Of a stretch of DNA of 64,000 nucleotides, positions 1 through 35,421 are shown one piece after another. The stretch comes from Verrucomicrobiia bacterium (lineage in GTDB: Bacteria; Verrucomicrobiota; Verrucomicrobiia; Limisphaerales; UBA1319). The notes under the pieces are model-generated. The model searched no databases. It was not told the origin of the DNA and saw nothing but the letters and a program-made list of their open reading frames with translations. The stretch is from assembly GCA_963664225.1 (NCBI GenBank), contig OY760937.1, positions 1,376,001 through 1,440,000 on the forward strand. Direction: 5' to 3'. The position numbers and the translations under genes were made by a program. Each line of letters starts with the position of its first letter. The first letter of the stretch is position 1.

Positions 1-48
1 GCCGATGAGACTCAATTGGTGCAGACGAACAAAGAATATCGCAATTTC

Positions 49-444: not shown

Positions 445-681
445 ACTTGGTCATAATTGGCACCGATGACAATCCGGCCCGCAATGAGATGCCCATCGCA
501 GAGGATTCTCTAAACTATAGTGCACACCGAGGCATCTTTAATCCAATAGCCGAAAATCACGGTAAAGATCAAAAGCTTCATATGTATGGGATGGAGGTGC
601 TCAATGTTTGGAACTAGGTGTTGCTCGCCACGGGACAGTTTTAGTGATTAATGCCCCATACCTTTGAAGGGTTGTTAAACC

Positions 682-1437: not shown

Positions 1438-1684
1438 CATCATGACAAAACAAAATGCATTAAAGCAACAAACGGCCGCCACAGAGGCCGCTCATGTTCC
1501 GGAAGCTCTTGCGATAAACATTGCCCCGCCCGGAGTCTTTACTTATTTATTATAAAGCACGTACATGGGGCGCAAGAGAGCCGGAGGGCTTGGAGAGTAT
1601 CCAGAAGATTTCGCCTGCGCCATCGGCATTCGATATAATGAAATCCGAATTGACAGAATATGTAAGTGGTCTAACCTGTAACTT

Positions 1685-3103: not shown

Positions 3104-3209
3104 GCCGATGTGTTCCCAATGTGTGCGTTTTTCGCAAGACGGGGCAATTTATTTGTAACCTTTCACGATTTCGTGGCTCGATGAGTTCTAGGTGCAAAAC
3201 TTAAAATCT

Positions 3210-3788
3210 ATGAACATAACTGACTGCGCTTCCGGCTCCTGCCGTTGCGGTGGAGGGCGTCAATCAATGAAGGGGCGTTGGAATCCCTATCTTGTCGGCA
3301 TTGGCATCGGCATCCTGAGTTGGCTGGCCTTTGCTGTTGTAGACGAACCGATTGGTATATCCACATCGCTCTCGGCTGTGTCCGGGCTTTGTGCCACCCC
3401 AATAATGGGCGGCGAAGCAGTGGCGAATAACGCTTACTGGGCCAAACTCCCATTTAAATGGAATGGCGGCATGTTGTTTCTTGTCGGCACGTTTCTCGGC
3501 AGTTTATTGAGCGTTCTGGCCAGCGGCACATTTCGGCTGGAGAAAGTCCCGGCGACGTGGTCGGAATACTTTGGCGGTTCGACTGGCAAGCGCATGTTCG
3601 CCGCCTTTCTCGGCGGTGTGATTATTATGTATGGAGCGCGCATGGCGGGTGGTTGCACCAGCGGACATGGCATCAGCGGTTCATTGCAATTGGCGCTGAG
3701 CAGTTGGGTGTTTTTTCTGACGATGTTCGTTTTCGGAATCGGAACTGCACTCATCCTCTTTCGAAAAACGTCGAACCAACCCCGATGA
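3210..3788 (+). CDS. YeeE/YedE-family sulfur-compound transporter, first half
   Basis: WNPY, PIGIST, YGARMAGGCTSGHGISG motif; hydrophobic; start could be 3192, 3210 or 3267. Confidence 0.85.
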   Translation: MNITDCASGSCRCGGGRQSMKGRWNPYLVGIGIGILSWLAFAVVDEPIGISTSLSAVSGLCATPIMGGEAVANNAYWAKLPFKWNGGMLFLVGTFLGSLLSVLASGTFRLEKVPATWSEYFGGSTGKRMFAAFLGGVIIMYGARMAGGCTSGHGISGSLQLALSSWVFFLTMFVFGIGTALILFRKTSNQPR

Positions 3789-3813
3789 TTTCAATTCTTA
3801 ACTTTTCAACACC

Positions 3814-4374
3814 ATGAATTTTCCTGTTTCTGCTGAAACGGCCCGTTGGCTGGCAATTCCGATGGGCATCCTTTTTGGGGTGCTTCTGCATCGCGGGGGC
3901 GTGTCGAACTATAACGTGATTGTTAATCAGTTCCGGTTCAAAGACTTCACCGTCCTTAAGGTTATGTTTACCGCCATCATTGTGGGTGGTATCGGCGTGC
4001 TCCTCCTGCATGGCGCTGGTCATGCCCTGTACCACATTAAGCCTGCGAATATGCTGGGCGTGGTCTTGGGTGCGGCCCTTTTTGGTGCGGGCATGGTGCT
4101 ATACGGATATTGTCCCGGCACGGGCATTGCCGCCATTGCCACGGGTAGCCTGCACGCCCTGGTCGGTTTCGTCGGCATGCTCCTGGGCGGAGCGCTCTAT
4201 GCGCTAAGTTTCTCCTGGGTTGCCAAACATATTCAGACCGTCGCGGCGCTGGGATCGGTTCGCCTTCCCGACATCACCGGCGTGCCCGACTGGGGCTGGT
4301 TCGGGATACTCATTGCGATCGCCAGCGTGATATTCTGGATTTTGGAAACAAAAGTTAAACCGGTCTCCGATTAG
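3814..4374 (+). CDS. YeeE/YedE-family transporter, second half
   Basis: GILFGVLL, FKDFTVLKVMFTAI, FGAGMVLYGYCPGT motif. Confidence 0.85.
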   Translation: MNFPVSAETARWLAIPMGILFGVLLHRGGVSNYNVIVNQFRFKDFTVLKVMFTAIIVGGIGVLLLHGAGHALYHIKPANMLGVVLGAALFGAGMVLYGYCPGTGIAAIATGSLHALVGFVGMLLGGALYALSFSWVAKHIQTVAALGSVRLPDITGVPDWGWFGILIAIASVIFWILETKVKPVSD

Positions 4375-10980: not shown

Positions 10981-11063
10981 TCCTTTTCCTTCAGTGTTGG
11001 TGGTCGTTGTATATCACACTTCAGAAACCAATTCGACGACAATCTGCTCAGTTTCTCACATTA

Positions 11064-11108
11064 ATGTTGCACCGAAATGTGTGGTTTAGCTATGGGGTGA
11101 AACCCCAC
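11064..11108 (-). promoter_or_regulatory. Bipartite upstream motif, copy 2 (GTGGGGTTTCACCCCATAGC-N18-GCAACAT on minus strand)
   Basis: Matches 5103-5148; contains imperfect palindrome TGGGGTGAAACCCCA. Confidence 0.55.
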
Positions 11109-11213
11109 TATGGATTGTAAAACACTTCCAGCCGAAGAGGTTCCAGGCGATTTTCCTTTTAAAGAACTTGCAGCTGTGACGCCGCCATCGAATCCTTGAA
11201 GCACATTTCCTGA

Positions 11214-11630
11214 GGGAGCTTCACCTCGCGCCTGAGCATGAACCTGCGCGAGGACAAGCATTGCTCCTATGGCGTGCGTTCTTCGATTGTGGATGCGATC
11301 GGTCAGCGGCCCTTCCTTGTTGTCGCTCCCGGTCAAAGGGACAAGACCAGGAAAGCCGTCCAAGAGTTAAGCCGGGAGTTAAAAGGGATGGTGGGCTCGC
11401 GACTGGCGTCTGCGGAGGAACTCGCCAAGGCGCAGAAGGACGAAACCGTTACGCTTGCGGACCGATAGGCAATCAGCTCTTCGGCCGCACATTCCATTGG
11501 CGAAATCGTTAATTGTGGCCTCCCGGCGGACTGCTTCATTAAACATTCAGACACTGTTCTTGAACTGAAGCTCGACGATCTGAGCCGCGCCGCTGGTGAA
11601 GTGGTCTATCCCGATCAGATGGTCTGGGGC
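11214..11630 (+). pseudogene. Fragment of an M16 (insulinase-like) zinc peptidase C-terminal domain
   Basis: GSFTSRLSMNLREDKHCSYG...GQRPF...EELAKAQ, in-frame TAG at 11466, then SIGEIVNCGLP...VVYPDQMVW in the same frame; no N-terminus. Confidence 0.7.
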
Positions 11631-11745
11631 GAACGTCATTGGCGCGGTTATCGAGACCGCCCACGTCGGAAACTCCTTGGCAGGGGAAGATGGGATTGGG
11701 CTCGGTCTGACAGGTGCGCTGAGGATTCGTGCCATCGGCATTCAC
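11630..11745 (-). pseudogene. Truncated DGC-domain (putative zinc-binding) gene start
   Basis: GTG overlaps the upstream stop (GTGA); PIFPCQGVSDVGGLDNRA resembles DGC-domain IFxCSGxSDVG...DRAAR; breaks off against the M16 fragment. Confidence 0.45.
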
Positions 11746-12470
11746 GACAGTGTCAGATTGGATGGGGTTGTTGCCGATTTTAAAAGACCGTCTTCCATCT
11801 CATAGGTCCGGTCGAAGACATCCAACGAGCGCTGGTCGTGGGTGACCACGAGGACAGCCGCGCCACGTTCGTGAGCGACCTTGCCGAATAACTCCATCAC
11901 CTGGCGTCCGCGATGGCTGTCGAGGGCGGCGGTGGGTTCGTCGGCGAGAATGAGGTTTGGCTGATTGGCCAGCGCCCGGGCCACGGCCACGCGCTGCTGC
12001 TGGCCGCCGGAAAGCGCGTCGGGAAGGTTGTTTGCCCGGTCTGCCACGCCAAGGTAATCAAGCAACTCCATCGCGCGTTCCCGGGCCGCGTGTGCAGAGA
12101 CGTCGTTGATCTCCATTGCAATCGCAACATTTTCCAAGGCATTTAGGAACGGAATGAGATTCGCCTTCTGGAAAACGAAACCAAGATGTTTGCGGCGGTA
12201 AGCGCGCACGTCCACCAGGGCGCGGCTGCCATCCATCACCGGTTCTCCACCGATGATGATGCGTCCGGAGGTGGGTGGGTTGATGAGGCCGATGGCAGTG
12301 AGAAAAGTGGATTTTCCCGCGCCGCTTGGACCGAGCAGGGCCACGACTTCACCATGCGCCAGGATCACGGAAACGTCTTTCATAGCCACGACCTCGGTGT
12401 TGCCCGAGCCGTAGATTTTCGTCAGGGCGACGGCTTCCACCGCATTGGTGTTATTGGAGGTTGTGGTCAT
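11742..12470 (-). CDS. ABC transporter ATP-binding protein (MacB/LolD type)
   Basis: GPSGAGKS, LSGGQQQRV, ILADEPT, VVTHD. Confidence 0.95.
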   Translation of the reverse strand: MTTTSNNTNAVEAVALTKIYGSGNTEVVAMKDVSVILAHGEVVALLGPSGAGKSTFLTAIGLINPPTSGRIIIGGEPVMDGSRALVDVRAYRRKHLGFVFQKANLIPFLNALENVAIAMEINDVSAHAARERAMELLDYLGVADRANNLPDALSGGQQQRVAVARALANQPNLILADEPTAALDSHRGRQVMELFGKVAHERGAAVLVVTHDQRSLDVFDRTYEMEDGLLKSATTPSNLTLS

Positions 12471-13678
12471 GATAATATCTTATTGGGTTCGACGCGCATG
12501 GCCTTGATGATGCCTACCAAACTTGCCAGCACGGAAATTCCCAACACGATGCCTGCCAGCGAGAGCAAGTCCTGTGGCTCGATGATCACGAATCGGGGAA
12601 ATCTCGGGAAGGCATATGTGCCCAGCCAATACGCCAGCCCATAACCGAGCGCTCCGATGAGCAACGCCTGCTGGAGAATCAGGCCGACAATCACACCGTT
12701 GCGCGCTCCCATTAACTTGAGCATGGCGATGTCGTGAATCTTGTCCATCGTGAGGGTGTAGATAATGAGCGCCATGATGATGGTCGAGATGATGATGAGC
12801 AGAGCGCGGAAGAGGCCGAGCTGGCGCCTGGCCTTGTCCACCATGCCGGAAAGCAGCAAGTCCACCTGCTGCTGTTTGGAATAGACTGTAACGTCCGGCC
12901 ACTTCGAGATGGTTCCGGAGACCTTCGCCACATCCGCCCCAGGCTGAAGGGTCAACATGATGGCGCTGACTTGAGGTGGCGCAAGGGCAGGAATGCCGCT
13001 GACGGGACCCATGGCGCGTTCGAGCAATAGGGGTTGCACACGGCCAATATCCTGGGCCTCGGCCCGCGTGCGACGCGATTGGCGTTCCAATCGGCTGACT
13101 TCTCCGGGCAGATCGAATTGAATGGCTTCCGCGTCGCTTGTCGTAAAAAAGCACAAGCCGTCGCCTCCGGTGCCAACCATGCCGCTGGTAATGCCAACGA
13201 CCTGGTAAATGTCCTTTCCGAGCTTTAATTTCTCACCGAGTCCCAGCTTCAAAGAGCGGTCTGCAATCATTTCAAAATGCGCATTCCTCAAGGGACGTCC
13301 CGAAATCAGTTTCACCCAATCGCCCCTGTCTTCAGGCCAGGAAAGTCCCTGCACCACCATGCGCAGCGTTTGGCCGCGATGCTCACGTTGAATTGTGTGT
13401 GAGACGAAGCGTCGCGCTCCAGCCACACCTGGCACGGCGCGCACCCGATCTTCCAGATTGGCAGGCATGCGCGAGATTTCCGCGAATGGCCCACGTGTGC
13501 TCCCTTGAACGACCCAAAGGTCGGCGCCGATGTTGTCCACGAGCAGTGTGGCTTCACGAATCAGTCCCCTGTAAATGCCGCCCATGCCCATCACGATCAT
13601 GAGGAGCAGGCCGATGCCGACGGTGGTTAATGCAAACCGACCGAAGTTGTGGCGAATGTCTTTGATTGCAAGGTTCAT
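12467..13678 (-). CDS. ABC transporter permease (FtsX/MacB type)
   Basis: One TM, large periplasmic domain, three TMs; DIAMLKLMGA; ATGA overlaps. Confidence 0.9.
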   Translation of the reverse strand: MNLAIKDIRHNFGRFALTTVGIGLLLMIVMGMGGIYRGLIREATLLVDNIGADLWVVQGSTRGPFAEISRMPANLEDRVRAVPGVAGARRFVSHTIQREHRGQTLRMVVQGLSWPEDRGDWVKLISGRPLRNAHFEMIADRSLKLGLGEKLKLGKDIYQVVGITSGMVGTGGDGLCFFTTSDAEAIQFDLPGEVSRLERQSRRTRAEAQDIGRVQPLLLERAMGPVSGIPALAPPQVSAIMLTLQPGADVAKVSGTISKWPDVTVYSKQQQVDLLLSGMVDKARRQLGLFRALLIIISTIIMALIIYTLTMDKIHDIAMLKLMGARNGVIVGLILQQALLIGALGYGLAYWLGTYAFPRFPRFVIIEPQDLLSLAGIVLGISVLASLVGIIKAMRVEPNKILS

Positions 13679-14847
13679 TGCAGGGCGACCTTTTGGCCGG
13701 GTTTGAGGGACGTTTGCCTGGAATCAAGCGGAGCAACGACTTGTTCTCCGGCCGACAAACCCCGGGTAATTTCAACTGTCTCACTTCCCCGCAAGCCGAG
13801 CGACACATCACGCCATGCGGCATGTCCTTTTTCCGAGACGAACACACCCGGTTTACCCGCTCGCCATTGAATAAATTGCTGCGGCACAACCAGGGCATCC
13901 GTTTTGCGCCCGGTCTCGATGAATACCTCGGCACGCTGGCCCACGGTCCAGTTGGCCGGCAGATTATTGACGGCAACATCCACCAGGAATTCGCGCGTCT
14001 CCCGGTCCGTTTCGCGACCGAGCCGCTTAACCGTCCCGGGATGATTTTTCTCAGATTCAGAACGGAATACCACGCGCGCCGTCTGGCCGGTGGCCAGGCC
14101 AGCGGACGCGGTTTCGTCCACCCAGGCGGACACCCAGATTTCATTGGTTGAGATTATTTGAAGGATCGAACTGCCGGGGACGACCACGCCACCCGCATCC
14201 CGGTCGCGTCGTGTGACCAGACCGTCATACGGGCTGAGAATCCGGGTGAAACTCAACCGCTCCTGTTGATAGGCCAGGTTTTTCTCCGCTGTGATGATTT
14301 GCCGTCGTGCCTCCACCGTGGCGGCGCGGGCGCGTTGAAGGTCGGCTTCCGCCACGCGCAGCAGCTCGATGGCTTTGTCGAATTCGGATTGCGAACTGAC
14401 TTTTGTGCTGACGAGTTCGGACACGCGTTTGTGGTCCTGTTGTGCCTGCACCTCCACCGCCTGGGCGCGGGCTTCATCCGCCAGAACGCGTTCGGCGGTG
14501 GACTTCGCCGCGGCAACGGTTGCCTCAGCGACTTCCACCTGACCCTTGAGTTCGCCATCATCGAGGCGGGCCAGCAACTGCCCGGCTTTGACAGAATCGT
14601 TTTGGTCCACAAGCACCTCCGCCAGCCGCTCCTGGATTTGCGGGCTGATGGTGGTCTTGATCCGGGCTTCGAGAGTGCCCGTGCCCATGACCTCGGCGGT
14701 GATGGGACCATTTTTGACTTCGTAACCGAGCACGCGCGTTGGAGCGAATTTTACGCGGTAAAGCAGGACGAGGACGATGGCCACCAGCGCAATCCATTTC
14801 GCTGACTTGCGGAGAACTGATAAAAAGCGGGTTCGTGATTCGTTCAT
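13675..14847 (-). CDS. Efflux periplasmic adaptor (membrane fusion protein)
   Basis: N-terminal anchor, VKAGQLLARLD, coiled hairpin, ILSPYDGLV, GLSAGEQVV. Confidence 0.9.
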   Translation of the reverse strand: MNESRTRFLSVLRKSAKWIALVAIVLVLLYRVKFAPTRVLGYEVKNGPITAEVMGTGTLEARIKTTISPQIQERLAEVLVDQNDSVKAGQLLARLDDGELKGQVEVAEATVAAAKSTAERVLADEARAQAVEVQAQQDHKRVSELVSTKVSSQSEFDKAIELLRVAEADLQRARAATVEARRQIITAEKNLAYQQERLSFTRILSPYDGLVTRRDRDAGGVVVPGSSILQIISTNEIWVSAWVDETASAGLATGQTARVVFRSESEKNHPGTVKRLGRETDRETREFLVDVAVNNLPANWTVGQRAEVFIETGRKTDALVVPQQFIQWRAGKPGVFVSEKGHAAWRDVSLGLRGSETVEITRGLSAGEQVVAPLDSRQTSLKPGQKVALQ

Positions 14848-14885
14848 ATATGTAAGGGGCGGTGGGATATTTCAGCGACTGGGGG

Positions 14886-15986
14886 CTACATGATCATGTT
14901 GAATAGATAGCCCACCAAAAGGATTCCCAGCGCCACAACGCCGAAGAAGGTCGCGATAAGCCGGGGCTTGAGCACCTTGCGGAGGATAATGGCCTCGGGC
15001 AGGGAGAGTGCTATGACGGACATCATGAACGCCAGGACTGTGCCCAGAGCGGCGCCTTTGCCGAGCAACGCCTGCACAATCGGGATGATGCCCGCCGCGT
15101 TGGAATACATCGGGACCCCAATGACCACTGCCAGTGGCACGGACCACCACGCGCCTTTACCCATGATGGAGGCCATGAAATTCTCTGGCACGTAACCGTG
15201 AATGCCCGCGCCGACGCCGATGCCAATCAGCACATAGAGCCAAACGCGTCCAACAATGTCCTTCACCGCGTCCAGGCCGGAACGGATGCGGGCTGACCAG
15301 TCGAGCGATTCTTCAGCGGCTCCATTGCCGAGTGGAGTCTGGTAAACCCAATCCTCGACGTGCTTCTCCATGTGCAAACGGCCAATAACCCAACCGGAAA
15401 CGATGGCGATGATGAGGCCGGTGCTGAGGTAAAGGGCTGCCACTTTCCAGCCAAACAATCCGAACAATAGAACCAGGGCGACTTCGTTGACCATCGGTGC
15501 GGAGACCAGAAAGGAGAACGTTACTCCCAAGGGGACCCCAGTTGTGACGAAGCCGATGAACAAAGGGACGGCCGAGCAGGAACAGAAAGGGGTGACGATG
15601 CCCAGTAGCGCCGCGAGCACATTGCCGACAGACTCGCGTTTGCCGAAGAGAATCCGGCGTGTCCGCTCCGGTGTGAAGAAAGAGCGGACGATGCCCACGC
15701 CGAATACGACCAGGGTGAGCAGCATGAGGACCTTGGGGGATTCATAGATAAAGAACTCCACGGATGAACCCAGGTGCGAACCTTTCGTCAGCCCGAATAG
15801 CGCATAGGTGAACCAGGACGCAAGCGACGCCAGACTTCGGTAGAGGAACCACCAAACCAGAAGCACGACAAAGCCCAACACGATATAGCGAAGGAGCGTC
15901 TGCTTGGGAACTGCCGGGGCGGGGCGGTCTGCCGACAGGTTCGTCGGCATGGGACTGGAGATTTGTTTGCGGCTCATCTCAGACAT
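14886..15986 (-). CDS. DUF318/ArsP-family permease
   Basis: TPFCSCSAVPLFIG, SAPMVNE, GVPMYSNAAG, ALSLPE. Confidence 0.9.
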   Translation of the reverse strand: MSEMSRKQISSPMPTNLSADRPAPAVPKQTLLRYIVLGFVVLLVWWFLYRSLASLASWFTYALFGLTKGSHLGSSVEFFIYESPKVLMLLTLVVFGVGIVRSFFTPERTRRILFGKRESVGNVLAALLGIVTPFCSCSAVPLFIGFVTTGVPLGVTFSFLVSAPMVNEVALVLLFGLFGWKVAALYLSTGLIIAIVSGWVIGRLHMEKHVEDWVYQTPLGNGAAEESLDWSARIRSGLDAVKDIVGRVWLYVLIGIGVGAGIHGYVPENFMASIMGKGAWWSVPLAVVIGVPMYSNAAGIIPIVQALLGKGAALGTVLAFMMSVIALSLPEAIILRKVLKPRLIATFFGVVALGILLVGYLFNMIM

Positions 15987-16020
15987 AATTACGGTCGTGA
16001 TTTGGAATTCACAGGTTGTC

Positions 16021-16719
16021 TCATGCCGCCGAGTAGATCAGCCAGATGCCGCCCAGAAGGACCAGAACGCCGCAGATGGATTTGATCACCGTGACGCCTT
16101 TGGATTGCTCGTTCCAATTGAGGAAGCGTTGGACGACTTCGGTGAAGGTTCCCGCGAGAATGATGACGGAACAATGCCCAATCCCGTAAGCGAGCAAAAG
16201 TGAGGCACCGTAAAGTGGCGCCGACCTGGCGAGTTTAAAAGTGACACCGAGCATCGGTGCCATGAAGGCGAAGGTGCAGGGCCCGAGCGCAATCCCGAAG
16301 ACGAGGCCGAGAATGAATGCGGCAAACAGGCCCTTGCGTTTCAAATTCACCTGGCCTGGGCCGGACCACGGCATCGGAATGACACCGAGCAGATTCAAGC
16401 CTACAACAAAGAAGATTGCCGCCACGAAGTAATTCCCCCAGTGCCCCACATCGCCCATCATCCGGCCCGCCATCGCCGTAATGGCTCCGATGGCCGCAAT
16501 CGTCATTAGAATCCCGACCGCAAACAGAGTCGCAATGCCCGAGGCGCGCGCTGTCGAGACGCGTCCTTGACCGCTGATGAACCCCACGATCAATGGAATG
16601 CTCGCCAGATGGCAGGGGCTGAGAATGATGCTGAGAATGCCCCAGACCACCGATGCGCCCAGCGCGAGCATGGGAGCGCCCTCGACGGCGTGACTGAGAC
16701 TTGTGAAGAGTTGCTCCAT
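16021..16719 (-). CDS. ccdA: CcdA/DsbD-beta thiol-disulfide transporter
   Basis: LSPCHLASIP and LGPCT conserved Cys motifs; about 6 TMs. Confidence 0.85.
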   Translation of the reverse strand: MEQLFTSLSHAVEGAPMLALGASVVWGILSIILSPCHLASIPLIVGFISGQGRVSTARASGIATLFAVGILMTIAAIGAITAMAGRMMGDVGHWGNYFVAAIFFVVGLNLLGVIPMPWSGPGQVNLKRKGLFAAFILGLVFGIALGPCTFAFMAPMLGVTFKLARSAPLYGASLLLAYGIGHCSVIILAGTFTEVVQRFLNWNEQSKGVTVIKSICGVLVLLGGIWLIYSAA

Positions 16720-16721
16720 GG

Positions 16722-16946
16722 CTATTGTGGGCGATTGGTGAGCGATTCGCTGGCAGCACTAAGAGCTTTCGCATTGGTGGCTGCGACTGTCAGCACAGAG
16801 TTGGTCGGCAGGGGCTCCAAGTTGAATAAGAGTGGACAACATGAGCCGCCGGCACATGCCGCGCGCTGTTCTTGCCGGGCCGTCAAGAGGGCTGCTGCCG
16901 CGATGAAAACAGTGCCGACGAGAAGTGTGCGGCGGTCGGGTTTCAT
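16722..16946 (-). CDS. Small exported Cys-cluster protein
   Basis: Fills the gap between operon genes (1-2 nt spacing); signal-like N-terminus; CAGGSCCP. Confidence 0.55.
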   Translation of the reverse strand: MKPDRRTLLVGTVFIAAAALLTARQEQRAACAGGSCCPLLFNLEPLPTNSVLTVAATNAKALSAASESLTNRPQ

Positions 16947-16947
16947 A

Positions 16948-18234
16948 TTATTTGCACTCGCCAAGTTTGCAGGCCTTTGCAATTTGGTCGGGTGTGAGCT
17001 TCATTTTGTCTGCGAGCGCTTGGGCGATGGTGATTTGTCGGCCAGTCATTGCCGGGCGAGCCTCAAGCCACTTGTTAAGATTGTCCTCGTTAACGAAGAA
17101 TCCCTGTTTGAAGCAACCGGCTGAGACCCACTTGCCTTCCGGGGCTTTTTTCTGCCCAAACCATGCGATGGCGGATGCCGGTTCCAGCGATGCTACCTGG
17201 CCATCCAATGTTTTCACGCGAATCAGCTCGCCGGTCTGGCTATCCTTCGCCTCAACTTCGATGTCCTGCTTCAGTCGTGCGGCCACGCCAATTGCGCAGT
17301 GCGTGCAGCAGCCGTATCCGTGAGTGGTTCCAAATTTTACGCCACACGCGTCTTCGGGATATACAGCGCGGTCGCAAAAGGCGCAACGCGTGGTCAGTTC
17401 CTTGGAGCGAAACACTTCCCAAGCCAGGAGATTGCCTGGATTAGTCTGCTGTTCCTTTGTGGCCGCAGCTTTGTCAGCGAACGCTTTGATCGTGGGGCGA
17501 CCTTTAGCGTCCATGCCGTAGAGATAGAATGCGGTGGTGGCGGCTACGAGATTGCCACTAGCCCAATCGGTCACGCTCACTTTGGCCTCTTCAGCTTTAG
17601 GGTCCGCGCCCACGATGCTGGAGAAGTAGATGAAATAGCAATGCGGTGAGCACAGGACGCGCTGCTCGGCCTGTCCTTTCACGACCGTCCTTGTCTTCGG
17701 ATCCACATCGCCGTCACACATGTAACAGACTTGATCGCGCGGGCGAGTGTCGGGTTTCACGGCTTCCTCGCGCACGTTTCCGGCCGATGCATTGCCGTTG
17801 CTCAAGTCGATGCCCAGTTCCTTCCACTTGCCGAGGATATCTTCTTTGCCAAAGAAACCCGTGTGGCGGAACAGTTCCCTGCCTTCGGCATCGAAGAAGA
17901 TCTGCGTGGGAATCATTTCAATGCCGTATTGTTTGCCCGCATCCGGATTTTTCCATACGTCAAGGAACTCGATGTTCACTTTCCCGGCGTACTCTTTTTT
18001 CAACCCCTCCAAAATGGGAGCCATCATTTTGCACGGAATGCATTTGTCCGCGCCCAGGTCAATGAGCTTGGGCAGCTTCGCGGTAACGCCTGGTGTTGCG
18101 TTTGTTTCAGCAACAGCCACAGGGAGAGGGGCCTTGCTGGCTTCGGCAGGCGATTTGGCGTTCTTCAGAGTCACCGCTCCAACGACCGCGAGCGCCAGCG
18201 CCAGAACAATGACGATTTTGACGGGAGTATTCAT
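16948..18234 (-). CDS. Exported thioredoxin + NosL-like + MerB-like multidomain protein
   Basis: Signal/anchor; Trx CIPC...IPTQIFFD; NosL-like CYMC...CSPHC...VTDWASG...AFY...AFADKAAA; MerB-like YGCCTHC...TG...EPA...GCFKQGFF...W. Confidence 0.8.
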   Translation of the reverse strand: MNTPVKIVIVLALALAVVGAVTLKNAKSPAEASKAPLPVAVAETNATPGVTAKLPKLIDLGADKCIPCKMMAPILEGLKKEYAGKVNIEFLDVWKNPDAGKQYGIEMIPTQIFFDAEGRELFRHTGFFGKEDILGKWKELGIDLSNGNASAGNVREEAVKPDTRPRDQVCYMCDGDVDPKTRTVVKGQAEQRVLCSPHCYFIYFSSIVGADPKAEEAKVSVTDWASGNLVAATTAFYLYGMDAKGRPTIKAFADKAAATKEQQTNPGNLLAWEVFRSKELTTRCAFCDRAVYPEDACGVKFGTTHGYGCCTHCAIGVAARLKQDIEVEAKDSQTGELIRVKTLDGQVASLEPASAIAWFGQKKAPEGKWVSAGCFKQGFFVNEDNLNKWLEARPAMTGRQITIAQALADKMKLTPDQIAKACKLGECK

Positions 18235-18265
18235 AATGAGTGTTCGTTTGAGTTGATCAAATGGT

Positions 18266-19042
18266 TCATGGTTTGATCTTCTGGAATAACGCCGGGAGCT
18301 TCGTGCGATACATCTCCGCCACCTGCGATTCCATCTCGGCCAGGGGTTTCACAGGAACGAGGTCCATCACTTGAGCGGGTGTCAGACCGGATTCGAGCAA
18401 TGTACGCGTGGCGCCACAAACCATGCGCTTCATCGCGGGGACAATTTCAGCGTCGCTGAGCCCAAAACCCGTCGCCACTTCGCGCAGGGCCTGAAGCTGG
18501 AACCACAGATAGGTTGGCCCCATGGCTGTGAGCAACGCGTAGCCTTCGAGCTTTTGTTCCGCCACTTCCGGGCACTCGCCCAGCGGTGTGAGCAAAGCGG
18601 TGACTTCCGCCTTGTCTGCGGCCGTCAAGGATGGCGCGAAGGCCACCGGATTAAAACCGAAGTTGACCAGGGATGGCGCATTGGGAATGACGCGCGCCAG
18701 CCGAGTGAATCCACCGAGCAGTTCTGAAAGTCTGGCAAACGTGAACTTGGGCGCGAGCGATACCACCAGCGCGCCGGGTTTGATGCCGGACTTGATGCCG
18801 CCGGCCACCTCAGCCATCGCCGGTGGATGAACCGCCAGAAAAACGATGTCCTGGGAGGGGGCCGCGTGGCTGTCTGTGGCCGTGTTGATGGATGGGAAGT
18901 TCGCTTTGAGATTCGCGAGAGTGTCCGCGTTGCAGTCGCTCACCACGATATGGGCCGGGAGGGTGTTCGCCCTTCTCCAGCCTTCCAGAAGAATACTTGT
19001 GACACGCCCGCCGCCAATGAAACCAATGCTTTTATTGCTCAT
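18266..19042 (-). CDS. ProC-like NAD(P)-binding oxidoreductase
   Basis: IGFIGGGRV Rossmann motif, FLAVHP, RVIPNAP, MGPTY; start at MSNKS. Confidence 0.8.
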   Translation of the reverse strand: MSNKSIGFIGGGRVTSILLEGWRRANTLPAHIVVSDCNADTLANLKANFPSINTATDSHAAPSQDIVFLAVHPPAMAEVAGGIKSGIKPGALVVSLAPKFTFARLSELLGGFTRLARVIPNAPSLVNFGFNPVAFAPSLTAADKAEVTALLTPLGECPEVAEQKLEGYALLTAMGPTYLWFQLQALREVATGFGLSDAEIVPAMKRMVCGATRTLLESGLTPAQVMDLVPVKPLAEMESQVAEMYRTKLPALFQKIKP

Positions 19043-19085
19043 GAAGGTCCTTTCAATTAAACGTTTCACGAATGATTTTGGAGGC

Positions 19086-19328
19086 TTACGCCGCCGCCTG
19101 TTGGAGAATCGCCTTGATCTCAGGGACGCTTGGCACCTTGCCAACGACCTTGATCGTGCCGTTAACCGCGAGGGCAGGGGTCATCATCACGCCCAGGGCC
19201 ATGATCTGCTTGAGATCGGTGACCTTGTTGATTTCAGCGGTGATGCCGAGTTCCTTGACGGCTTGCTCGGTGAATTGCGCCAGGGTTTTGCATTTGGCGC
19301 AGCCGGTTCCAATGACGAGTAATTGCAT
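19086..19328 (-). CDS. Small thioredoxin-like redox-active disulfide protein (MTH895-like)
   Basis: GTGCAKC, GVMMTPALAVNG, GKVPS. Confidence 0.9.
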   Translation of the reverse strand: MQLLVIGTGCAKCKTLAQFTEQAVKELGITAEINKVTDLKQIMALGVMMTPALAVNGTIKVVGKVPSVPEIKAILQQAAA

Positions 19329-19348
19329 AATAGGATTTTATTTTGAGA

Positions 19349-19777
19349 TTAGAATAATGCTTCGTAGAGCAGTCCGCTCAGCGTCGACATCACAATGACG
19401 AGCGACACATGGACCACCGTTTTCTTCGTGCCCAGGCGCCAGATACCTGCAAACAAAGGTAATACGGTGCAGGAGCAGACCGCCAGAATGGTGCCCGACA
19501 CCGACGCCACGCCGTAGGCCATGGGCTTGCTGGCCTTTGGGCCGAGATATTTCATGACTGAGGCCTGACTGACAAACACTCCAATGGCGCCGGCAATGAA
19601 AAAGGCGGGGACAAGGCACAAAATGACATGCTCGCGCGCATACCATTTCACTAATTCAAAGGCTTCGGTTATGGCGTTATCGAAACGTGGCACACCGACT
19701 GACAGATAAAAACACGCCAAAAACAAACCGACGATCAGGGACAGCGGCTTCCACTCGTCTTTCCAGTTCGTAGCCAT
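19349..19777 (-). pseudogene. DUF318-family permease with large in-frame internal deletion
   Basis: N-terminus AREHVILCLVPAFFIAGAI...AVCSCTVLPLFAGI joined directly to C-terminal GTKKTVV...SGLLY; only 142 aa. Confidence 0.65.
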
Positions 19778-19817
19778 TTAGCGGAGTCGATAAATGAAAA
19801 TTCAAAAAAAAGAGAAA

Positions 19818-20147
19818 TCAGGCCAGCAGGGCAGCATCCCGATCGATGGAGGCTTTCCGCACCTCCGTAACGCAATGGAAGAATTTCATCACACACGGAG
19901 TTTTTAACTGGTAGAAAACCTGCGCACCGCGCTTGTCGTCTTCCACGATGCCAGCCGACTTGAGCACCGACAAATGCCGGGAGACGGTGGGCATTTCCAC
20001 TCCAATCATGGCCGTTAATTCACAGACGCATCGTTCCCCCCGAGAAAGTTCCTCAACAATAAAGAGGCGCGTCGGATGGGCGAGGGCCTTATGAACTTTT
20101 GCCTGGGCCTGATACCGTGCTTTGTCAATCGAAGTCATGCCATTCAT
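19818..20147 (-). CDS. ArsR/SmtB-family metalloregulator
   Basis: KALAHPTRLFI, ERCVCEL (alpha3 Cys site), TVSRHLSVLKSAGIV; extra C-terminal Cys pair. Confidence 0.9.
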   Translation of the reverse strand: MNGMTSIDKARYQAQAKVHKALAHPTRLFIVEELSRGERCVCELTAMIGVEMPTVSRHLSVLKSAGIVEDDKRGAQVFYQLKTPCVMKFFHCVTEVRKASIDRDAALLA

Positions 20148-20155
20148 TCGTGAGC

Positions 20156-20183
20156 AATTTAGCATATCTGCTAAGTGTGTCAA
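20156..20183 (-). promoter_or_regulatory. Sigma70-type promoter (TTGACA-N16-TAAATT) with overlapping inverted repeat TTAGCA-N4-TGCTAA, a probable ArsR operator
   Basis: -35 at 20178-20183, -10 at 20156-20161, palindrome at 20159-20174, just upstream of the regulator ATG. Confidence 0.7.
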
Positions 20184-20329
20184 ACTAAAAACGACAAATT
20201 GTTGAATATAGCGTCAATCTCGTCAGCCACGCCTTGAGTTTGGATTGGACTTTACTCCGAGCCACTTGAAAATCGATTTCATGATTTGACAGTGCTCACT
20301 CAATCCTGGCTCCGATCTACGCACCTATC

Positions 20330-20525
20330 CTTTGAATAGTGATCCAAATCGGGCGATCACGTCGAAAAGTTACTTCTCGATGCCACTTTGAACAATTGGT
20401 GGAAGGTGCCGTGGAGATTCTCCAGCTATTCGTTGATGCTTTTATCGGTGCGTTCCATCGCCGCCAGGCGGTTCGCGTTTCGCTGGAGAGGGATTCGGCT
20501 CACGCCCGAAAGAGCGAGACGGAGA
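20330..20525 (-). pseudogene. atpG: Relic of the C-terminus of an alternate (N-type) F0F1 ATP synthase gamma subunit
   Basis: Across two frameshifts and three stops reads VSLFRA*AESLSSE/NANRLAAMERTDKSINE*LENLHGTFHQL/QSGIEK*LFDVIARF. Confidence 0.75.
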
Positions 20526-20809
20526 AGCTCAGTGAGCTTCCGAATTCACGCAAGTCTGGAAAGAGTGGAAACTCCCGGGGCCTTTTGCCTCAAATCAGGA
20601 TTCGACAATTGCATAATTTTCTCTGGGGCGGAACACTATAAGCCCTTTGGAAATCGTGTTGTCGTATCACCAAGACATGGCCCTGCAAAGAGTGGTATCG
20701 CTACCGACTGGGGCTGCTCCCCTTTCGAGGGATTGGCTTGCACATTTGCGCCTTGGTCCTATTTCCAGGAGCGTCCTGCGCTAGAACATAGGGCATTTCA
20801 GTGTCATTC

Positions 20810-31694: not shown

Positions 31695-33173
31695 TTAAGC
31701 AAGATCCTCCAGCAGCAGGCGCGCACTGATGCGGGCGGATTCAAAAATCACCGGCAGACCACTCCCGGGATGTGTGCCGCCCCCCACCAGATACATGCGG
31801 TCGAATTCCTCGAAACGGTTGCGCGGGCGCAAATGGAGCATCTGGCCGAGATTGTGGGCAAGATTGAAAGTCGCACCGCGATAGATTCCAACTTTGTTTT
31901 CCCACTCAGCCGGGGTGACCATGCGCTCGAAGCGAATGCGCTTTTCGATGTCGGTCAAACCCAGTTTGGCCAGTTGCCGCAATGCGACTTGCCGGTAGCG
32001 GAAGCGCTCCCTGCCCCAGTCAATGTTCGGATGCTGATGGCTTACAGGTACCAGCACATACAAAGCACTGTGGCCCGGTGGCGCCATCGTTTGGTCAGTG
32101 CGGCACGGATTCTCGACATAGAACGAAGGGTCTTCGGTGAGCACGTGCTGATTCTCGATTTCGTCAAGGTTCTGCCGGTAATTCGCGGCCACGTAAATGT
32201 TGTGGTGCTGAAGCTGCTCGTAGCGGCCTTCGATTCCCAGATAAAGCATGAAGGTGGAGCAGGAAAAGCGTTTGCTGGCGATGGTTTTGTTGGTCCAACG
32301 GTGTCGCAGTCGTTCAGGCACGAGTGTGGTCATCGCATGACCAAAGTCGGCGTTCACCACCACCGCATCGGACCGGTACTCACCTTGCGCGGTGCGAGCG
32401 CCCACAGCCCTCCGACCCTCGAATAGAATTTCTTCCACAGGCTCGTCCAGCCGGATGGTCACACCGAGTTCTGTGGCCACGCGCGCCATGCCGCGAGTGA
32501 GCGCGTTACAGCCTCCGATCGGATGCCAGATGCCGTGTTCGTATTCGAGAAAAGAGAGAATCGAGAACAGGCTGGGACATTTAAAAGGAGACATCCCCAG
32601 GTATTTCGACTGGAAGGTGAATGCCAATTGCAGACGCGGATCCTGGAAGTAACCGGCCAGTTCTGCGTGCAACGATTTCCACGGCTTCAGGTAAGGAAGC
32701 ACCGCAAGCAGGCGCGCTTGCAGGAGGCTCGTCCAGCCGGGAAATGGCGATTGCAAACACGGCGCAAACTTCTCCAGCTTCACACGGTTGTAATCCATGA
32801 ACCGGCGAAACTGCGGTGCATCGTCCGGCGCCAACTTCGCGATTTCCGCCTCCATCTGCACGATATCCGATTTGCATAGCAGTTCGCCACCAGCGCCAAA
32901 GACGAGCCGGTATTGAGGATCGAGCCGCTTCATCGGGATTTCAGTGCGGAGATCGCGACCGACCTCGGTGAATATTTCCTCCAGGATTTGTGGGTAGAGG
33001 AAAAAGGTGGGACCGAGGTCAAAGCGAAATCCTTCGGCTTCAATGGCCGAAGTCCGGCCGCCAACGCGCGGTTGCTTTTCCAGAATGGTGACTTGCTTTC
33101 CTGCTTTAGCCAATAGTAACGCAGTCGCCAACGCGCCTGGTCCAGCGCCGATGATTAGCACTTGCTGTGACAT
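31695..33173 (-). CDS. crtN: CrtN-type 4,4'-diapophytoene desaturase
   Basis: IIGAGPG FAD motif, FDLGPTFF, FQSKYLGMSP, GGGTHPGSGLP. Confidence 0.75.
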   Translation of the reverse strand: MSQQVLIIGAGPGALATALLLAKAGKQVTILEKQPRVGGRTSAIEAEGFRFDLGPTFFLYPQILEEIFTEVGRDLRTEIPMKRLDPQYRLVFGAGGELLCKSDIVQMEAEIAKLAPDDAPQFRRFMDYNRVKLEKFAPCLQSPFPGWTSLLQARLLAVLPYLKPWKSLHAELAGYFQDPRLQLAFTFQSKYLGMSPFKCPSLFSILSFLEYEHGIWHPIGGCNALTRGMARVATELGVTIRLDEPVEEILFEGRRAVGARTAQGEYRSDAVVVNADFGHAMTTLVPERLRHRWTNKTIASKRFSCSTFMLYLGIEGRYEQLQHHNIYVAANYRQNLDEIENQHVLTEDPSFYVENPCRTDQTMAPPGHSALYVLVPVSHQHPNIDWGRERFRYRQVALRQLAKLGLTDIEKRIRFERMVTPAEWENKVGIYRGATFNLAHNLGQMLHLRPRNRFEEFDRMYLVGGGTHPGSGLPVIFESARISARLLLEDLA

Positions 33174-33211
33174 GAGATTATTAATATCAGGCAATCAAGC
33201 CAATTGCAACC

Positions 33212-34594: not shown

Positions 34595-34640
34595 ATTGGG
34601 AATGGCTAAAGCTCTGTGACGAGTGTATGATAGTCAAGCG

Positions 34641-35414: not shown

Positions 35415-35421
35415 AGCAAAT

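Follow-up and report, generated by a model that had tools for sequence, protein, structure and literature searches.

The locus considered here raises the question of what a protein that joins a thioredoxin to relatives of both NosL and the organomercurial lyase MerB does for its host, a Verrucomicrobiia bacterium. The window analyzed is a stretch of 64,000 nucleotides from contig OY760937.1, and the gene under study, referred to below as the fusion, is an open reading frame that runs uninterrupted from ATG to stop. A preliminary description, made from the DNA sequence, had proposed an exported thioredoxin-NosL-MerB-like protein with a “re-wired” MerB active site, which would bind metals or metalloids, or process organometals, rather than act as a classical mercury lyase. 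The fusion, its domains, and its neighbors are compiled in Table 1.

Table 1. The fusion gene, its predicted domains, and neighboring genes in the window.
Feature	Position	Strand	Basis or remark
Whole fusion gene	16948..18234	-	428 aa: signal/anchor, thioredoxin, NosL-like domain, MerB-like domain, CxxxxC tail
Residues 1-25, N-terminal hydrophobic helix (putative signal peptide or membrane anchor)	18160..18234	-	Model: helix 4-25
Residues 53-140, thioredoxin domain, C65-I-P-C68 and IPT cis-proline stretch	17815..18078	-	Pfam Thioredoxin
Residues 164-282, NosL-like domain, C170-x2-C173-x21-C195-x3-C199	17389..17745	-	Pfam NosL and fold
Residues 283-420, MerB-like domain, C284-x2-C287-x21-C309-x3-C313 with C310 and C374	16975..17388	-	Pfam MerB and fold
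Residues 421-428, C-terminal tail A-C422-K-L-G-E-C427-K, conserved CxxxxC pair	16951..16974	-	Conservation
DsbD-superfamily membrane protein (“CcdA-like”/ArsG-like), 232 aa	16021..16719	-	Downstream of the fusion
Thioredoxin_3 (Trx_3) protein, 80 aa (MTH895/ArsE family)	19086..19328	-	Pfam 91.5 bits; TIGR00412 103.7 bits, cut-off 62
Pyrroline-5-carboxylate-reductase-like NADP oxidoreductase	18266..19042	-	Pfam F420_oxidored 57.9 bits; proC 113.9 bits, cut-off 196.75
ArsP_1 permease remnant, 142 aa, in-frame internal deletion	19349..19777	-	Comparison with locus L014
ArsR/SmtB regulator, C52-V-C54 and C97-x6-C104	19818..20183	-	HTH_5 59 bits; NF033788 93.1 bits, cut-off 55
Second, intact ArsP_1 permease, shorter type	14886..15986	-	Pfam ArsP_1 254.2 bits
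MacAB-type efflux genes: HlyD-family adaptor, MacB/FtsX permease, ABC ATPase	11742..14847	-	Pfam

The architecture that had been proposed, a signal or anchor followed by thioredoxin, NosL-like, and MerB-like domains, was borne out: Pfam finds all three domains, the folds agree, and the domain coordinates fit. Pfam Thioredoxin matches residues 53-126 (48.8 bits; cut-off, 23.5). The best match of this domain among PDB sequences is 3hxs/3hyp (E 2.5e-14), of which 3hyp is titled Bacteroides fragilis TrxP, and Foldseek returns many thioredoxins at a TM of about 0.7. Pfam MerB (PF03243) spans residues 298-407 with profile positions 9-118 of 126 (68.2 bits, cut-off 27, E 8.4e-19) and reaches 70.7 bits in a six-frame scan of the genome. 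The match of Pfam NosL (PF05573) to residues 167-273 is marginal: it scores 24.2 bits, the cut-off being 24, and rises to 27.2 bits in the six-frame scan, and the family profile finds PDB NosL sequences at only E 0.5. For both C-terminal domains, the profile matches are accompanied by structural ones. The full-length model has a pLDDT of 84.5, and a separate model of residues 160-428 has a pLDDT of 94.0 and a pTM of 0.87; confidence is low in the linker (residues 24-51, pLDDT <50) and reduced at the C-terminal end (last block, pLDDT 75-77). VIA pairs the NosL-like domain with NosL 7og7_A (Z 12.2, rmsd 2.7, 109 residues) and 2hq3_A (Z 6.3), and the MerB-like domain with MerB2 5c17_A (Z 12.9, 127 residues) and MerB 3f2g_A (Z 11.6, 124 residues); the next unrelated match after the NosL and MerB entries has a Z of 4.3. 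Foldseek matches at E<=0.001 are MerB, MerB2, or NosL entries in 13 of 13 cases, and a search of the ESM Atlas with residues 160-428 yielded no usable match.

The N-terminal hydrophobic segment has a median hydrophobicity of 3.04 over 17 residues among 119 homologues. The charges that flank it are even in the same set (+1.75 vs +1.71), so charge leaves the orientation of the segment undecided. Distant relatives that lack the thioredoxin begin with signals that we take, from a lipobox pattern, to be lipoprotein-like (e.g., ...LLLSC and ...LAFSC). The fusion itself is probably extracytoplasmic, either exported or anchored facing outward. Sec-exported proteins usually carry no Fe-S clusters; the N-terminus shows no twin-arginine motif, and a reading of the cysteine sets as Fe-S ligands was set aside.

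Relatives of the fusion occur in at least 591 species-level genomes, mostly of poorly cultured Verrucomicrobiota and Planctomycetota, and the conservation counts given here refer to the best 80 of 591 confirmed loci, which come from related genomes and are not independent of one another. The cysteines at 65, 68, 170, 173, 195, 199, 284, 287, 309, 310, 313, 374, and 422 (13 positions) are cysteine in 80/80 loci, a count that is biased for C65, C68, C195, and C199 because the patterns used to select the loci included these four. C427 is cysteine in 79/79 loci and C297 in 25/80 only. The cysteines that the preliminary description had picked out are conserved in homologues. In a separate alignment, C284, C287, C309, and C313 are invariant in 30/30 sequences, and C170, C173, C195, and C199 are kept in >=90%. 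A selenocysteine reading was considered: among the 80 loci, none of the cysteine positions of the fusion matches is occupied by an in-frame stop, and stops appear only in secondary, thioredoxin-only matches. A contig of 1399 bases from a metatranscriptome library, about 90.6% identical, spans positions 16633-18031; it records a relative in that library and is not evidence of transcription.

How closely does the last domain follow MerB? The gapless alignment with E. coli MerB that had been put forward, with TG and EPA in register, holds in both phmmer and profile comparisons. phmmer aligns the fusion with MerB2 (5c17) at E 2.3e-9, and the family profile does so at E 9.7e-13; the profile match to the D99S mutant of E. 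coli MerB (5c0t) reaches only E 0.25, with an identical register. In this register, C310 corresponds to Cys96, C374 to Cys159, and C313 to residue 99, just as had been claimed. C313 faces a serine of MerB2 and of the D99S mutant in the alignments, and the position of the catalytic Asp99 is cysteine in 80/80 loci. The domain thus has in common with MerB and MerB2 (PF03243; 3f0p, 3f2g, 5c17) the catalytic-core fold, the Pfam membership, and the equivalents of Cys96 and Cys159. It differs from MerB in its cysteine, rather than aspartate, at residue 99, and in the C284/C287 knuckle and C309, which complete a Cys4 site of a kind that MerB has lost. Further, unlike MerB, it is part of a probably exported or anchored protein, is joined to a thioredoxin and a NosL-like domain, and lies in an ars rather than a mer context. 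The N-terminal ~70 residues of MerB, which close over the active site, have no counterpart: the structural match begins at chain residue 77 of 5c17 and 73 of 3f2g, and the fusion's residues before 282 form the NosL-like domain.

The view that this is not a classical mercury lyase is sustained by the NCBIfam MerB models NF033555 and NF009710, against which the fusion scores 29.2 and 25.6 bits, far below the cut-offs of 200 and 193, and by the genome, in which no MerA match exceeds its cut-off (best 369.9 bits vs 454.45). Mer and nos genes had been said to be missing from the window, and none was found among its 57 open reading frames of >=90 aa. The genome holds one MerB-domain and one NosL-domain match, both within the fusion gene; NosZ, searched with model TIGR04246 alone, was not detected in this genome, which is 96% complete.

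The TRASH motif is reportedly spaced C-x2-C-x19-22-C-x3-C, and the NosL-like and MerB-like domains each carry a TRASH-type Cys4 motif, CxxC-x21-CxxxC, that falls within this spacing. In the models, the Cys4 regions run in the order knuckle, beta-hairpin, and helix start, as in treble clefs, and the lower VIA matches of residues 160-228 are RING, B-box, L24e, and TRASH (2das, Z 3.1) zinc fingers. No Pfam YHS or TRASH-type family matched the fusion at E<=0.1. The fusion shares C-x2-C-x21-C-x3-C and the knuckle-hairpin-helix order with TRASH and treble-clef fingers, as these are cited in later articles (Ettema et al. 2003 and Kaur and Subramanian 2014, via PMC4999995 and PMC10114901); in contrast to a free finger of ~40 residues, its motif forms part of a whole NosL/MerB-fold domain (115-140 residues).

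Sequence comparison further identifies the two domains as homologues: hhalign pairs them with a probability of 95.5% (E 1.4e-8), and 30 column shuffles give at most 6.0%. The middle domain had been described as Cys-rich and NosL-like, which it is; its possession of the same Cys4 motif and its sequence homology to the last domain had gone unnoticed. It is without the two extra cysteines of the MerB-like domain, S196 and R246 being found at those places, the latter opposite C374 in the domain-domain alignment. H198 is invariant in it. With regard to the Cu(I) ligands of NosL (Cys62, Met64, and Met145), it has a CxxC (C170, C173), and M172 is kept in 65/80 loci.

NosL, the Cu(I) chaperone of nitrous-oxide reductase maturation (PF05573; 7og7, 2hq3), offers a guide to these sites. 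Its structural Zn site consists of C59, C62, C88, and D92, and its cargo Cu(I) sits beside this site, on C62, M64, and M145 (PMC8457098). The middle domain of the fusion has the same fold, with CxxC...Cxxx(C/D) at the place of the structural Zn. NosL is extracytoplasmic and has a structural metal with an adjacent cargo site (PMC8457098), a design that we propose for the fusion as well. The fusion departs from NosL in having Cys4 in place of 3Cys+Asp and in lacking evident methionine ligands for Cu; it is neither a stand-alone lipoprotein nor part of a nos cluster, and its NosL-type domain occurs twice in tandem, the second copy being MerB-like.

Given these motifs, C313 is better read as the fourth ligand of an intact predicted Cys4 site, and hence as an un-derived state, than as the mark of a “re-wired” active site. 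The exchange of Asp99 for cysteine stands, but it is no lone change: C313 belongs to an intact Cys4 motif together with C284, C287, and C309. The relatives P0134 and P0136, which lack the thioredoxin, keep the Cys4 site without C374, and P0136 is also without C310; the Cys4 site is therefore separable from the extra pair C310/C374. The geometry predicted for the Cys4 site, like the proximity proposed for C310 and C374, derives from motif, secondary structure, and homology.

The genomic neighborhood bears on the nature of the cargo. The fusion belongs to a cassette of ArsR, an ArsP permease, a small thioredoxin, the fusion, and a DsbD-family membrane protein, which is conserved in Verrucomicrobiota and Planctomycetota, often beside acr3, arsM, and arsC-like genes. 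Within 6 kb of the fusion are the Trx_3 gene in 71/80 loci, the DsbD-like gene, downstream, in 69/80, and the ArsR/SmtB gene in 62/80; a full-length cassette ArsP_1 (~438 aa) is present in 55/80. Among the 63 loci with a match to the regulator, its cysteines are kept as follows: C52 in 63/63, C54 in 62/63, C97 in 55/56, and C104 in 56/56. Acr3 accompanies the fusion in 30/80 loci and ArsM in 23/80 (by tblastn), and representatives of both pass their NCBIfam models (376.2 vs 282.8 bits and 324.7 vs 263 bits, respectively). ArsC-like genes and the ArsF family are each found in 15/80 loci, and FMN_red near the fusion in 32/80. Nearly all of these neighboring genes lie on the same strand as the fusion. 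The order in locus L036, for example, is ArsR, ArsP, Trx_3, DGC, ArsF, fusion, Trx protein, DsbD_TM, FMN_red, and LMWPc. Among the 19 neighborhood clusters found in >=6 loci, none is a mer family or any other copper or mercury gene family. The context of the fusion is that of arsenic, which had been listed before only for assay.

In the present genome, the cassette is altered. Residues 4-116 of the ArsP_1 remnant correspond to 17-129 of the 448-aa reading frame of locus L014, and residues 115-142 to 420-447. The second ArsP_1 is of a shorter type that occurs in 24/80 loci; its nearest families are SaoE (137.5 bits vs 325) and SO_0444 (101.9 vs 300), both below cut-off. These two ArsP_1 matches are the only ones in the genome, and both lie inside the fusion's cassette. 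acr3 and arsM are located ~2.7 Mb away from it, and ArsF was not found in the genome. With the usual ArsP reduced to a remnant, acr3 and arsM distant, and ArsF not found, the link to arsenic rests here on the ArsR and ArsP genes and on the relatives. The MacAB-type genes are a variable appendage (HlyD, MacB, and ABC components within 6 kb in 12/80, 11/80, and 15/80 loci, respectively), and the pyrroline-5-carboxylate-reductase-like gene is found within 6 kb in 20/80. For the latter gene, the ATG at 19042 is the likelier start, because a start at the listed TTG (19144) would overlap the preceding gene. A scan of positions 11000-20800 for promoters and terminators gave no excess over shuffled sequence (2 vs a mean of 4.2 and 9 vs a mean of 10.8, respectively).

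The DsbD-like protein deserves separate mention. It is 65-89% identical across the two phyla, and its P35-C36 and P147-C148 motifs are invariant in 20/20 sequences, as are C183 and C216. Its homologues in L051 and L036 (71-76% identity) exceed the Pfam DsbD_TM cut-off of 27.1 bits, with scores of 44.6 and 45.5, but the window's own protein has no such match, and the six-frame genome scan finds DsbD_TM elsewhere only. Its best curated match is the NCBIfam efflux-permease family ArsG (NF040495), at 41.2 bits (range 41-56 bits) and far below the cut-off of 200; a profile search of PDB sequences returned nothing relevant. Instead of conducting electrons, the protein may act as a transporter. The small Trx_3 protein shows no evident export signal. 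Together, these genes recall the ArsEFG module and ArsP of ars operons, the roles of ArsE, ArsF, and ArsG being taken here from their NCBIfam names. The points in common are a Trx_3 protein above the ArsE-family cut-off (TIGR00412), ArsF (NF040494) in some of the loci, a DsbD-like protein nearest to ArsG (NF040495), ArsP_1, and ArsR; the differences are that the fusion stands outside the described set, that the ArsG score is far below cut-off, and that this genome yielded no ArsF.

What, then, does the fusion do? We favor, at an even chance, an exported, thiol-based protein for arsenic binding or hand-over in an ArsR-controlled operon, and not a classical organomercurial lyase. The most likely cargo is a thiophilic metalloid, As(III) or trivalent organoarsenicals. 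The N-terminal hydrophobic segment would export the fusion across the membrane or anchor it there. Each NosL/MerB-fold domain would, by homology, be held by a Cys4 site with a structural metal, as by Zn in NosL. C310 and C374, beside the MerB-like Cys4 site, would make up the cargo site, to which a Cys4 ligand may contribute by bridging, and the C422/C427 arm may fetch the cargo or pass it on. Judging by the conserved gene order, the fused thioredoxin would keep the fusion's thiols reduced, and the neighboring DsbD-family protein would recharge it across the membrane, possibly from the small cytoplasmic Trx_3; the recharging by “CcdA” put forward earlier corresponds to this putative step. More speculatively, the cargo could be exchanged with an ArsP-type permease or with the efflux systems of the operon. 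Because the ArsP permeases come nearest to the Cu/Zn exporter SO_0444 and to SaoE, in both cases below cut-off, the element is not fixed.

We weighed the possibility that the fusion acts in the periplasm in the manner of NosL, chaperoning or buffering a different soft metal (Cu(I), Zn, Cd, or Hg(II)) and serving the SO_0444-like permease or the MacAB-type pump, with the arsenic genes as mere island neighbors. The NosL-like fold (Z 12.2) is in keeping with this, and NosL-type proteins also occur outside nos clusters, where the NosL authors consider that they may represent a wider type of chaperone (PMC8457098). The permeases score best against SO_0444 and SaoE, as stated; regulators of the ArsR/SmtB family respond to many metals, and the CVC and Cx6C motifs of the present one are unspecific. 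Further, it is MacAB-type efflux genes that adjoin the cassette in the window, rather than acr3, arsC, or arsM. However, the neighborhoods of the relatives are enriched specifically in arsenic genes (Acr3 30, ArsM 23, ArsC-like 15, and ArsF 15 of 80) and hold no Cu or Hg family among the 19 recurrent clusters; moreover, the Cu ligands Met64 and Met145 of NosL have no evident methionine counterparts, and R246 stands at the place of C374. We think a soft-metal chaperone unlikely.

A true organometal(loid) lyase is rather unlikely. In such an enzyme, the substrate bound by C310 and C374 would be methylarsenite or some other R-As(III), or else R-Hg+; the part of Asp99 in protonolysis would fall to a third thiol, either C313 or a cysteine of the tail, and the thioredoxin would reset the site. 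We know of no enzyme that carries out C-As protonolysis. The Pfam MerB score (68.2 bits), the fold match to Hg-bound MerB2 (Z 12.9), and the Cys96 and Cys159 equivalents in 80/80 loci all fit a lyase, and genes whose products make or move methylarsenite lie nearby (ArsM in 23/80 and ArsP in 55/80 loci). In a review, three-thiol model compounds are reported to protonolyze methyl- and ethylmercury (PMC10114901). On the other hand, Asp99 is essential in MerB; C313 is most simply the fourth Cys4 ligand, in which case it would not be free; the ~70 N-terminal residues of MerB have no counterpart, and the scores are far below the NCBIfam cut-offs for MerB and SaoL.

SaoL, a MerB-like (seleno)protein of the SAO locus, invites comparison. 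According to a preprint (10.1101/2022.07.06.499078), it belongs to the MerB family, has a non-canonical, Cys-packed metal site, and is encoded beside the ArsP-family exporter SaoE and a small thioredoxin-like protein. The preprint describes SaoL, unlike the fusion, as cytosolic, single-domain, and ~213 aa long, with a CU or CC motif in the Cys159 region and nine-gene loci of the anaerobic Firmicutes type (10.1101/2022.07.06.499078). The fusion scores 23.4 bits against the SaoL model NF040728 (cut-off 140), and architecture and neighbors differ.

Another possibility is that a thiol relay runs from Trx_3 through the DsbD-like protein and the fused thioredoxin to the Cys-rich domains, with the fusion as its outward-facing, terminal reductase. 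Its substrates outside the cytoplasm would be arsenicals, pentavalent or nitro-aromatic, or else adducts of arsenic with thiols, and it would be the exported equivalent of ArsC or of the nitroreductase pair ArsEF. The fusion of a thioredoxin to Cys-rich domains, the DsbD-family neighbor in 69/80 loci, the membership of Trx_3 in the MTH895/ArsE family, ArsF in 15/80 loci, and the gene order of L036, in which Trx_3, ArsF, the fusion, and DsbD_TM occur together, are consistent with such a relay. Yet metal binding and lyase activity, and not reductase chemistry, are what the NosL/MerB fold is known for, and ArsF was not found in this genome; we regard this account as quite improbable. The boldest proposal, an O2-independent, extracytoplasmic carbon-arsenic (or carbon-metalloid) lyase that would clamp ArsP-exported methyl- or aryl-arsenite between C310 and C374, cleave it by thiol-assisted protonolysis in a tri-thiol site reset by the fused thioredoxin and the DsbD-like conduit, and represent both an anaerobic counterpart of O2-dependent ArsI and a surviving intermediate that links TRASH zinc fingers, NosL, and MerB, has in our estimation only a slim chance of being right.

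The favored reading, arsenic binding or hand-over outside the cytoplasm, places the fusion among arsenic-operon components, of which it is an unstudied and widespread one, with relatives in at least 591 species-level genomes. In the literature searched, we found no description of a thioredoxin-NosL-MerB protein, in agreement with the earlier impression that the architecture was undescribed. A practical caution follows for environmental surveys: Pfam MerB matches in metagenomes should not be equated with a potential for methylmercury demethylation. The fusion also touches on the ancestry of MerB, which reviews describe as an evolutionary orphan tied to NosL by structure only (PMC10114901); the sequences of MerB and NosL have been reported as not usefully alignable (PMC8261052). 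NosL-like and MerB-like domains that stand side by side, that are sequence homologues, and that both retain a full Cys4 motif are what one would expect of an early form under the TRASH-duplication hypothesis, and phylogenies of MerB could use the family as an outgroup or bridge. For the organisms that carry it, the fusion points to an extracytoplasmic arsenic chemistry that is lacking from current models of ars systems.

The fusion is an intact product of 428 residues in which thioredoxin, NosL and MerB domains are recognized by profile, the Pfam scores placing it within the MerB family and marginally within NosL (see the table). Its predicted structure leads to the same two families. Models of the whole protein (pLDDT 84.5) and of residues 160-428 (pLDDT 94.0, pTM 0.87) were obtained, and in an exhaustive comparison with the structures of 48,161 chains, residues 282-420 matched MerB2 (5c17_A; Z 12.9, rmsd 2.7, 127 residues) and residues 164-282 matched NosL (7og7_A; Z 12.2, rmsd 2.7, 109 residues). 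A MerB chain (3f2g_A, Z 11.6) and a second NosL chain (2hq3_A, Z 6.3) also matched, and beyond these two MerB and two NosL chains no match in the search exceeded Z 4.3. Foldseek agrees, as all 13 of its matches at E<=0.001 are MerB, MerB2 or NosL entries. Treble-clef zinc fingers (RING, B-box, ribosomal L24e, MYND, ZZ and the TRASH domain 2das) make up the weaker structural matches on residues 160-228.

The NosL and MerB domains of the preliminary description are thus borne out by both profile and fold. That description had also aligned the last domain with MerB without gaps, and phmmer and a 25-sequence family profile share its register, 'TG' and 'EPA' included, which confirms the observation. 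Against MerB2, phmmer gave E 2.3e-9 and the profile E 9.7e-13; against E. coli MerB D99S the profile reached only E 0.25, with the register unchanged. By both methods C310 falls on Cys96 and C374 on Cys159 of MerB, as had been proposed, and C313 falls on residue 99, which is Asp in MerB and Ser in MerB2 and in the D99S mutant. The idea of a "re-wired" MerB site holds insofar as a cysteine occupies the Asp99 position; C313 is, however, no isolated substitution, for it completes a Cys4 pattern.

This pattern, C284-x2-C287-x21-C309-x3-C313, is a complete one of the TRASH type, whose spacing rule is said to go back to Ettema and colleagues in 2003. The middle domain carries an identical pattern, C170-x2-C173-x21-C195-x3-C199. 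In a 30-sequence alignment with identity down to 23%, C284, C287, C309 and C313 are invariant, and conservation is 90% or higher at C170, C173, C195, C199, C310 and C374. The fusion has 15 cysteines in all (65, 68, 170, 173, 195, 199, 284, 287, 297, 309, 310, 313, 374, 422 and 427); in the best 80 of at least 591 confirmed loci they are kept in 80 of 80, apart from C427 (79 of 79) and C297 (25 of 80), the search patterns having included C65, C68, C195 and C199, so that the full count for these four is biased by selection. In both domains as modelled, the CxxC precedes a beta-hairpin and the other cysteine pair lies where a helix starts, which is the treble-clef order. Further, profile comparison shows the NosL-like and MerB-like domains to be homologues: hhalign aligned them over 95 columns (probability 95.5%, E 1.4e-8), whereas the probability never exceeded 6.0% in 30 column shuffles and was 0.3% with a reversed profile. 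The alignment pairs C170/C173/C195/C199 with C284/C287/C309/C313, S196 with C310, and R246 with C374.

In the crystal structure of Shewanella NosL, C59, C62, C88 and D92, which form the corresponding pattern, hold a buried structural Zn(II), and the cargo Cu(I) lies 3.4 Å from it on bridging C62, M64 and M145 (PMC8457098). According to papers citing Kaur and Subramanian 2014 (PMC4999995, PMC10114901), the NosL/MerB fold consists of TRASH treble clefs that were duplicated and no longer bind zinc, and in MerB the former zinc ligands turned catalytic. The simplest reading is that the fusion retains the ancestral Cys4 sites in both domains and that its last domain adds the MerB-type pair C310/C374 alongside. 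In line with this, the thioredoxin-less relatives P0134 and P0136 keep the Cys4 site yet lose C374, and P0136 is without C310 as well. In a more distant thioredoxin-less group, both domains have additional cysteines at the two positions (CCPHC, PCC(A/N)P), and the N-termini are lipoprotein-like signals.

Among 7999 candidates scored in a word-index search, 1975 proteins reached E<=0.001, some of which may match thioredoxin alone. The best 120 of these are full-length fusions, 74-100% identical, annotated only as "thioredoxin 1" or "thioredoxin fold domain-containing protein". The NosL-MerB module is a narrow family: searched alone among 1.84 billion, it found 100 cluster representatives at E<=0.001, 57 at E<=1e-10 and 28 at E<=1e-30. 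At least 591 loci were confirmed among the 599 pattern matches listed (one genome per species), the best 80 being nearly all from MAGs of Verrucomicrobiota or Planctomycetota. The distribution is patchy: the fusion occurs in 7 of 9 further genomes from the family to which the window belongs, in 3 of 31 others from the order, and in 5 of 400 genomes sampled evenly across the phylum. In one relative's genome in the family (G404) the module is matched on different contigs, twice in full and once in part. In sequencing run X7, and also in X15 and X1, the DsbD-like gene directly adjoins a thioredoxin-domain gene on relatives' contigs, which skip about 1.08 kb of window 16720-17800, so forms without the NosL and MerB domains seem to exist; at 80% likeness, these contigs may stem from other organisms or paralogues. 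X15 is a metatranscriptome library, and another of its contigs (1399 bases, about 90.6% identical) covers window 16633-18031, taking in most of the fusion gene together with the end of the DsbD-like one; it documents a relative's presence in the library and is no proof of transcription.

Genes of the cassette (window positions) and domains of the fusion (residues)
Feature	Position	Strand	Remarks
ArsR	19818-20183	minus	first of minus-strand order
ArsP_1 remnant	19349-19777	minus	142-aa in-frame deletion product of the cassette's usual upstream permease
Trx_3, MTH895/ArsE family	19086-19328	minus	
P5C-reductase-like NADP oxidoreductase	18266-19042	minus	
Fusion	16948-18234	minus	fifth in order
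Thioredoxin domain	residues 53-126		Pfam 48.8 bits
NosL domain	residues 167-273		Pfam 24.2 bits, barely above cut-off 24
MerB domain	residues 298-407		Pfam 68.2 bits, E 8.4e-19
DsbD-superfamily membrane protein	16021-16719	minus	
Intact ArsP_1 permease	14886-15986	minus	of a type other than the remnant's
HlyD adaptor, MacB permease, ABC ATPase	11742-14847	minus	

The two ArsP_1 genes of the cassette are the only ArsP_1 matches in the genome. In a 448-aa homologue, the counterparts of remnant residues 4-116 and 115-142 are residues 17-129 and 420-447. The best sigma-70-like match (TTGACA, 16 nt, TAAATT; window 20156-20183, minus strand) overlaps the TTG at which the ArsR frame is listed as starting, so translation may in fact begin at an ATG downstream; the promoter scan around the cassette as a whole was not above chance. 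Acr3 and arsM lie about 2.7 Mb from the cassette, and ArsF was not found in this genome. Elsewhere, an upstream group at window 16-4374 (plus strand) codes for a redox protein of the C_GCAxxG_C_C type, a class I methyltransferase (29.5 bits only to the ArsM model), a TolC-like outer-membrane factor and, in adjacent genes, two half-size YeeE/YedE (Sulf_transp) proteins. Clustered at 31695-38397 are two flavin amine-oxidase/desaturase-like genes, a family-2 glycosyltransferase and a CrtO-type acyltransferase (glycosyl-4,4'-diaponeurosporenoate acyltransferase family), which together suggest a C30 carotenoid glycoside-ester pathway.

The gene company of the fusion is arsenic. Within 6 kb of it in the 80 loci we found Trx_3 (71), the DsbD-like gene (69), ArsR (62), the P5CR-like gene (20), ABC (15), HlyD (12) and MacB (11). 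When 1128 neighbour ORFs from within 8 kb were clustered without bias, an ArsP_1 some 438 aa long occurred in 55 loci, ArsR in 42, FMN_red in 32, a shorter ArsP_1 in 24, Acr3 in 22, an LMWPc arsenate-reductase-like family, the ArsF family and ArsM in 15 each, and F420_oxidored in 14. By tblastn with this genome's own proteins, 30 of the 80 loci have Acr3 and 23 have ArsM; representatives of both pass their NCBIfam cut-offs, and nearly all the recurrent genes share the fusion's strand. A longer operon in a Phycisphaerae locus (L036:6997-14591) comprises ArsR, ArsP, Trx_3, a DGC-domain protein, the ArsF family, the fusion, a 326-aa protein whose C-terminal part is a thioredoxin, DsbD_TM, FMN_red and LMWPc; the DGC-domain protein and this second thioredoxin protein are additional uncharacterised members.

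By homology, the Cys4 sites of both domains would hold structural metal, and C310 and C374 would form a soft-metal or metalloid site beside the Cys4 site. Gene order suggests that the fused thioredoxin may keep this site reduced and that the DsbD-like protein may in turn recharge it. Two features of this scheme are weak points. The first is topology: residues 4-25 are modelled as a hydrophobic helix, followed by a low-confidence linker (24-51), and in 119 homologues the charges flanking the hydrophobic segment are nearly equal (+1.75 and +1.71) and so favour neither orientation. Many of these homologues have an A-V-A stretch, which we take to be a possible signal-peptidase site. The second is the identity of the membrane partner. 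The DsbD-like protein has four invariant cysteines (C36, C148, C183 and C216), two more than CcdA. Pfam DsbD_TM does not match the window copy, and a six-frame genome scan places it only elsewhere; homologues sharing 71-76% identity are above its cut-off, with 44.6 and 45.5 bits. The nearest curated family, the ArsG efflux permease, scores 41.2 bits against a cut-off of 200.

The element bound is another weak point. We give about an even chance to the fusion being an arsenic binding or hand-over protein. That it handles another soft metal is unlikely. Copper, mercury and nos families are absent from the 19 recurrent neighbour clusters, the genome's single MerB and single NosL matches both lie within the fusion gene, MerA is not found above cut-off, NosZ is not found with the one model tried, and the window outside the fusion has no mer or nos genes, as first described. 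That the fusion is a true lyase is slightly less likely again. It has the Cys96 and Cys159 equivalents; it differs from MerB at Asp99, in the N-terminal region and in lacking a mer context, and its last domain scores far below the NCBIfam MerB equivalog models (29.2 bits against a cut-off of 200, 25.6 against 193) and the SaoL model (23.4 against 140). An outward reductase is rated marginally lower still.

In working, the protein would most resemble NosL, with its structural metal and adjacent cargo site outside the cytoplasm, while the putative cargo ligands resemble those of MerB. We found no description of the thioredoxin-NosL-MerB architecture in the literature, in keeping with the preliminary description. 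The nearest published idea is SaoL, a cytosolic MerB-like selenoprotein adjoining an ArsP-family exporter (bioRxiv 10.1101/2022.07.06.499078). The fusion is of interest for its arsenic biology and as a bridge that connects TRASH fingers, NosL and MerB.
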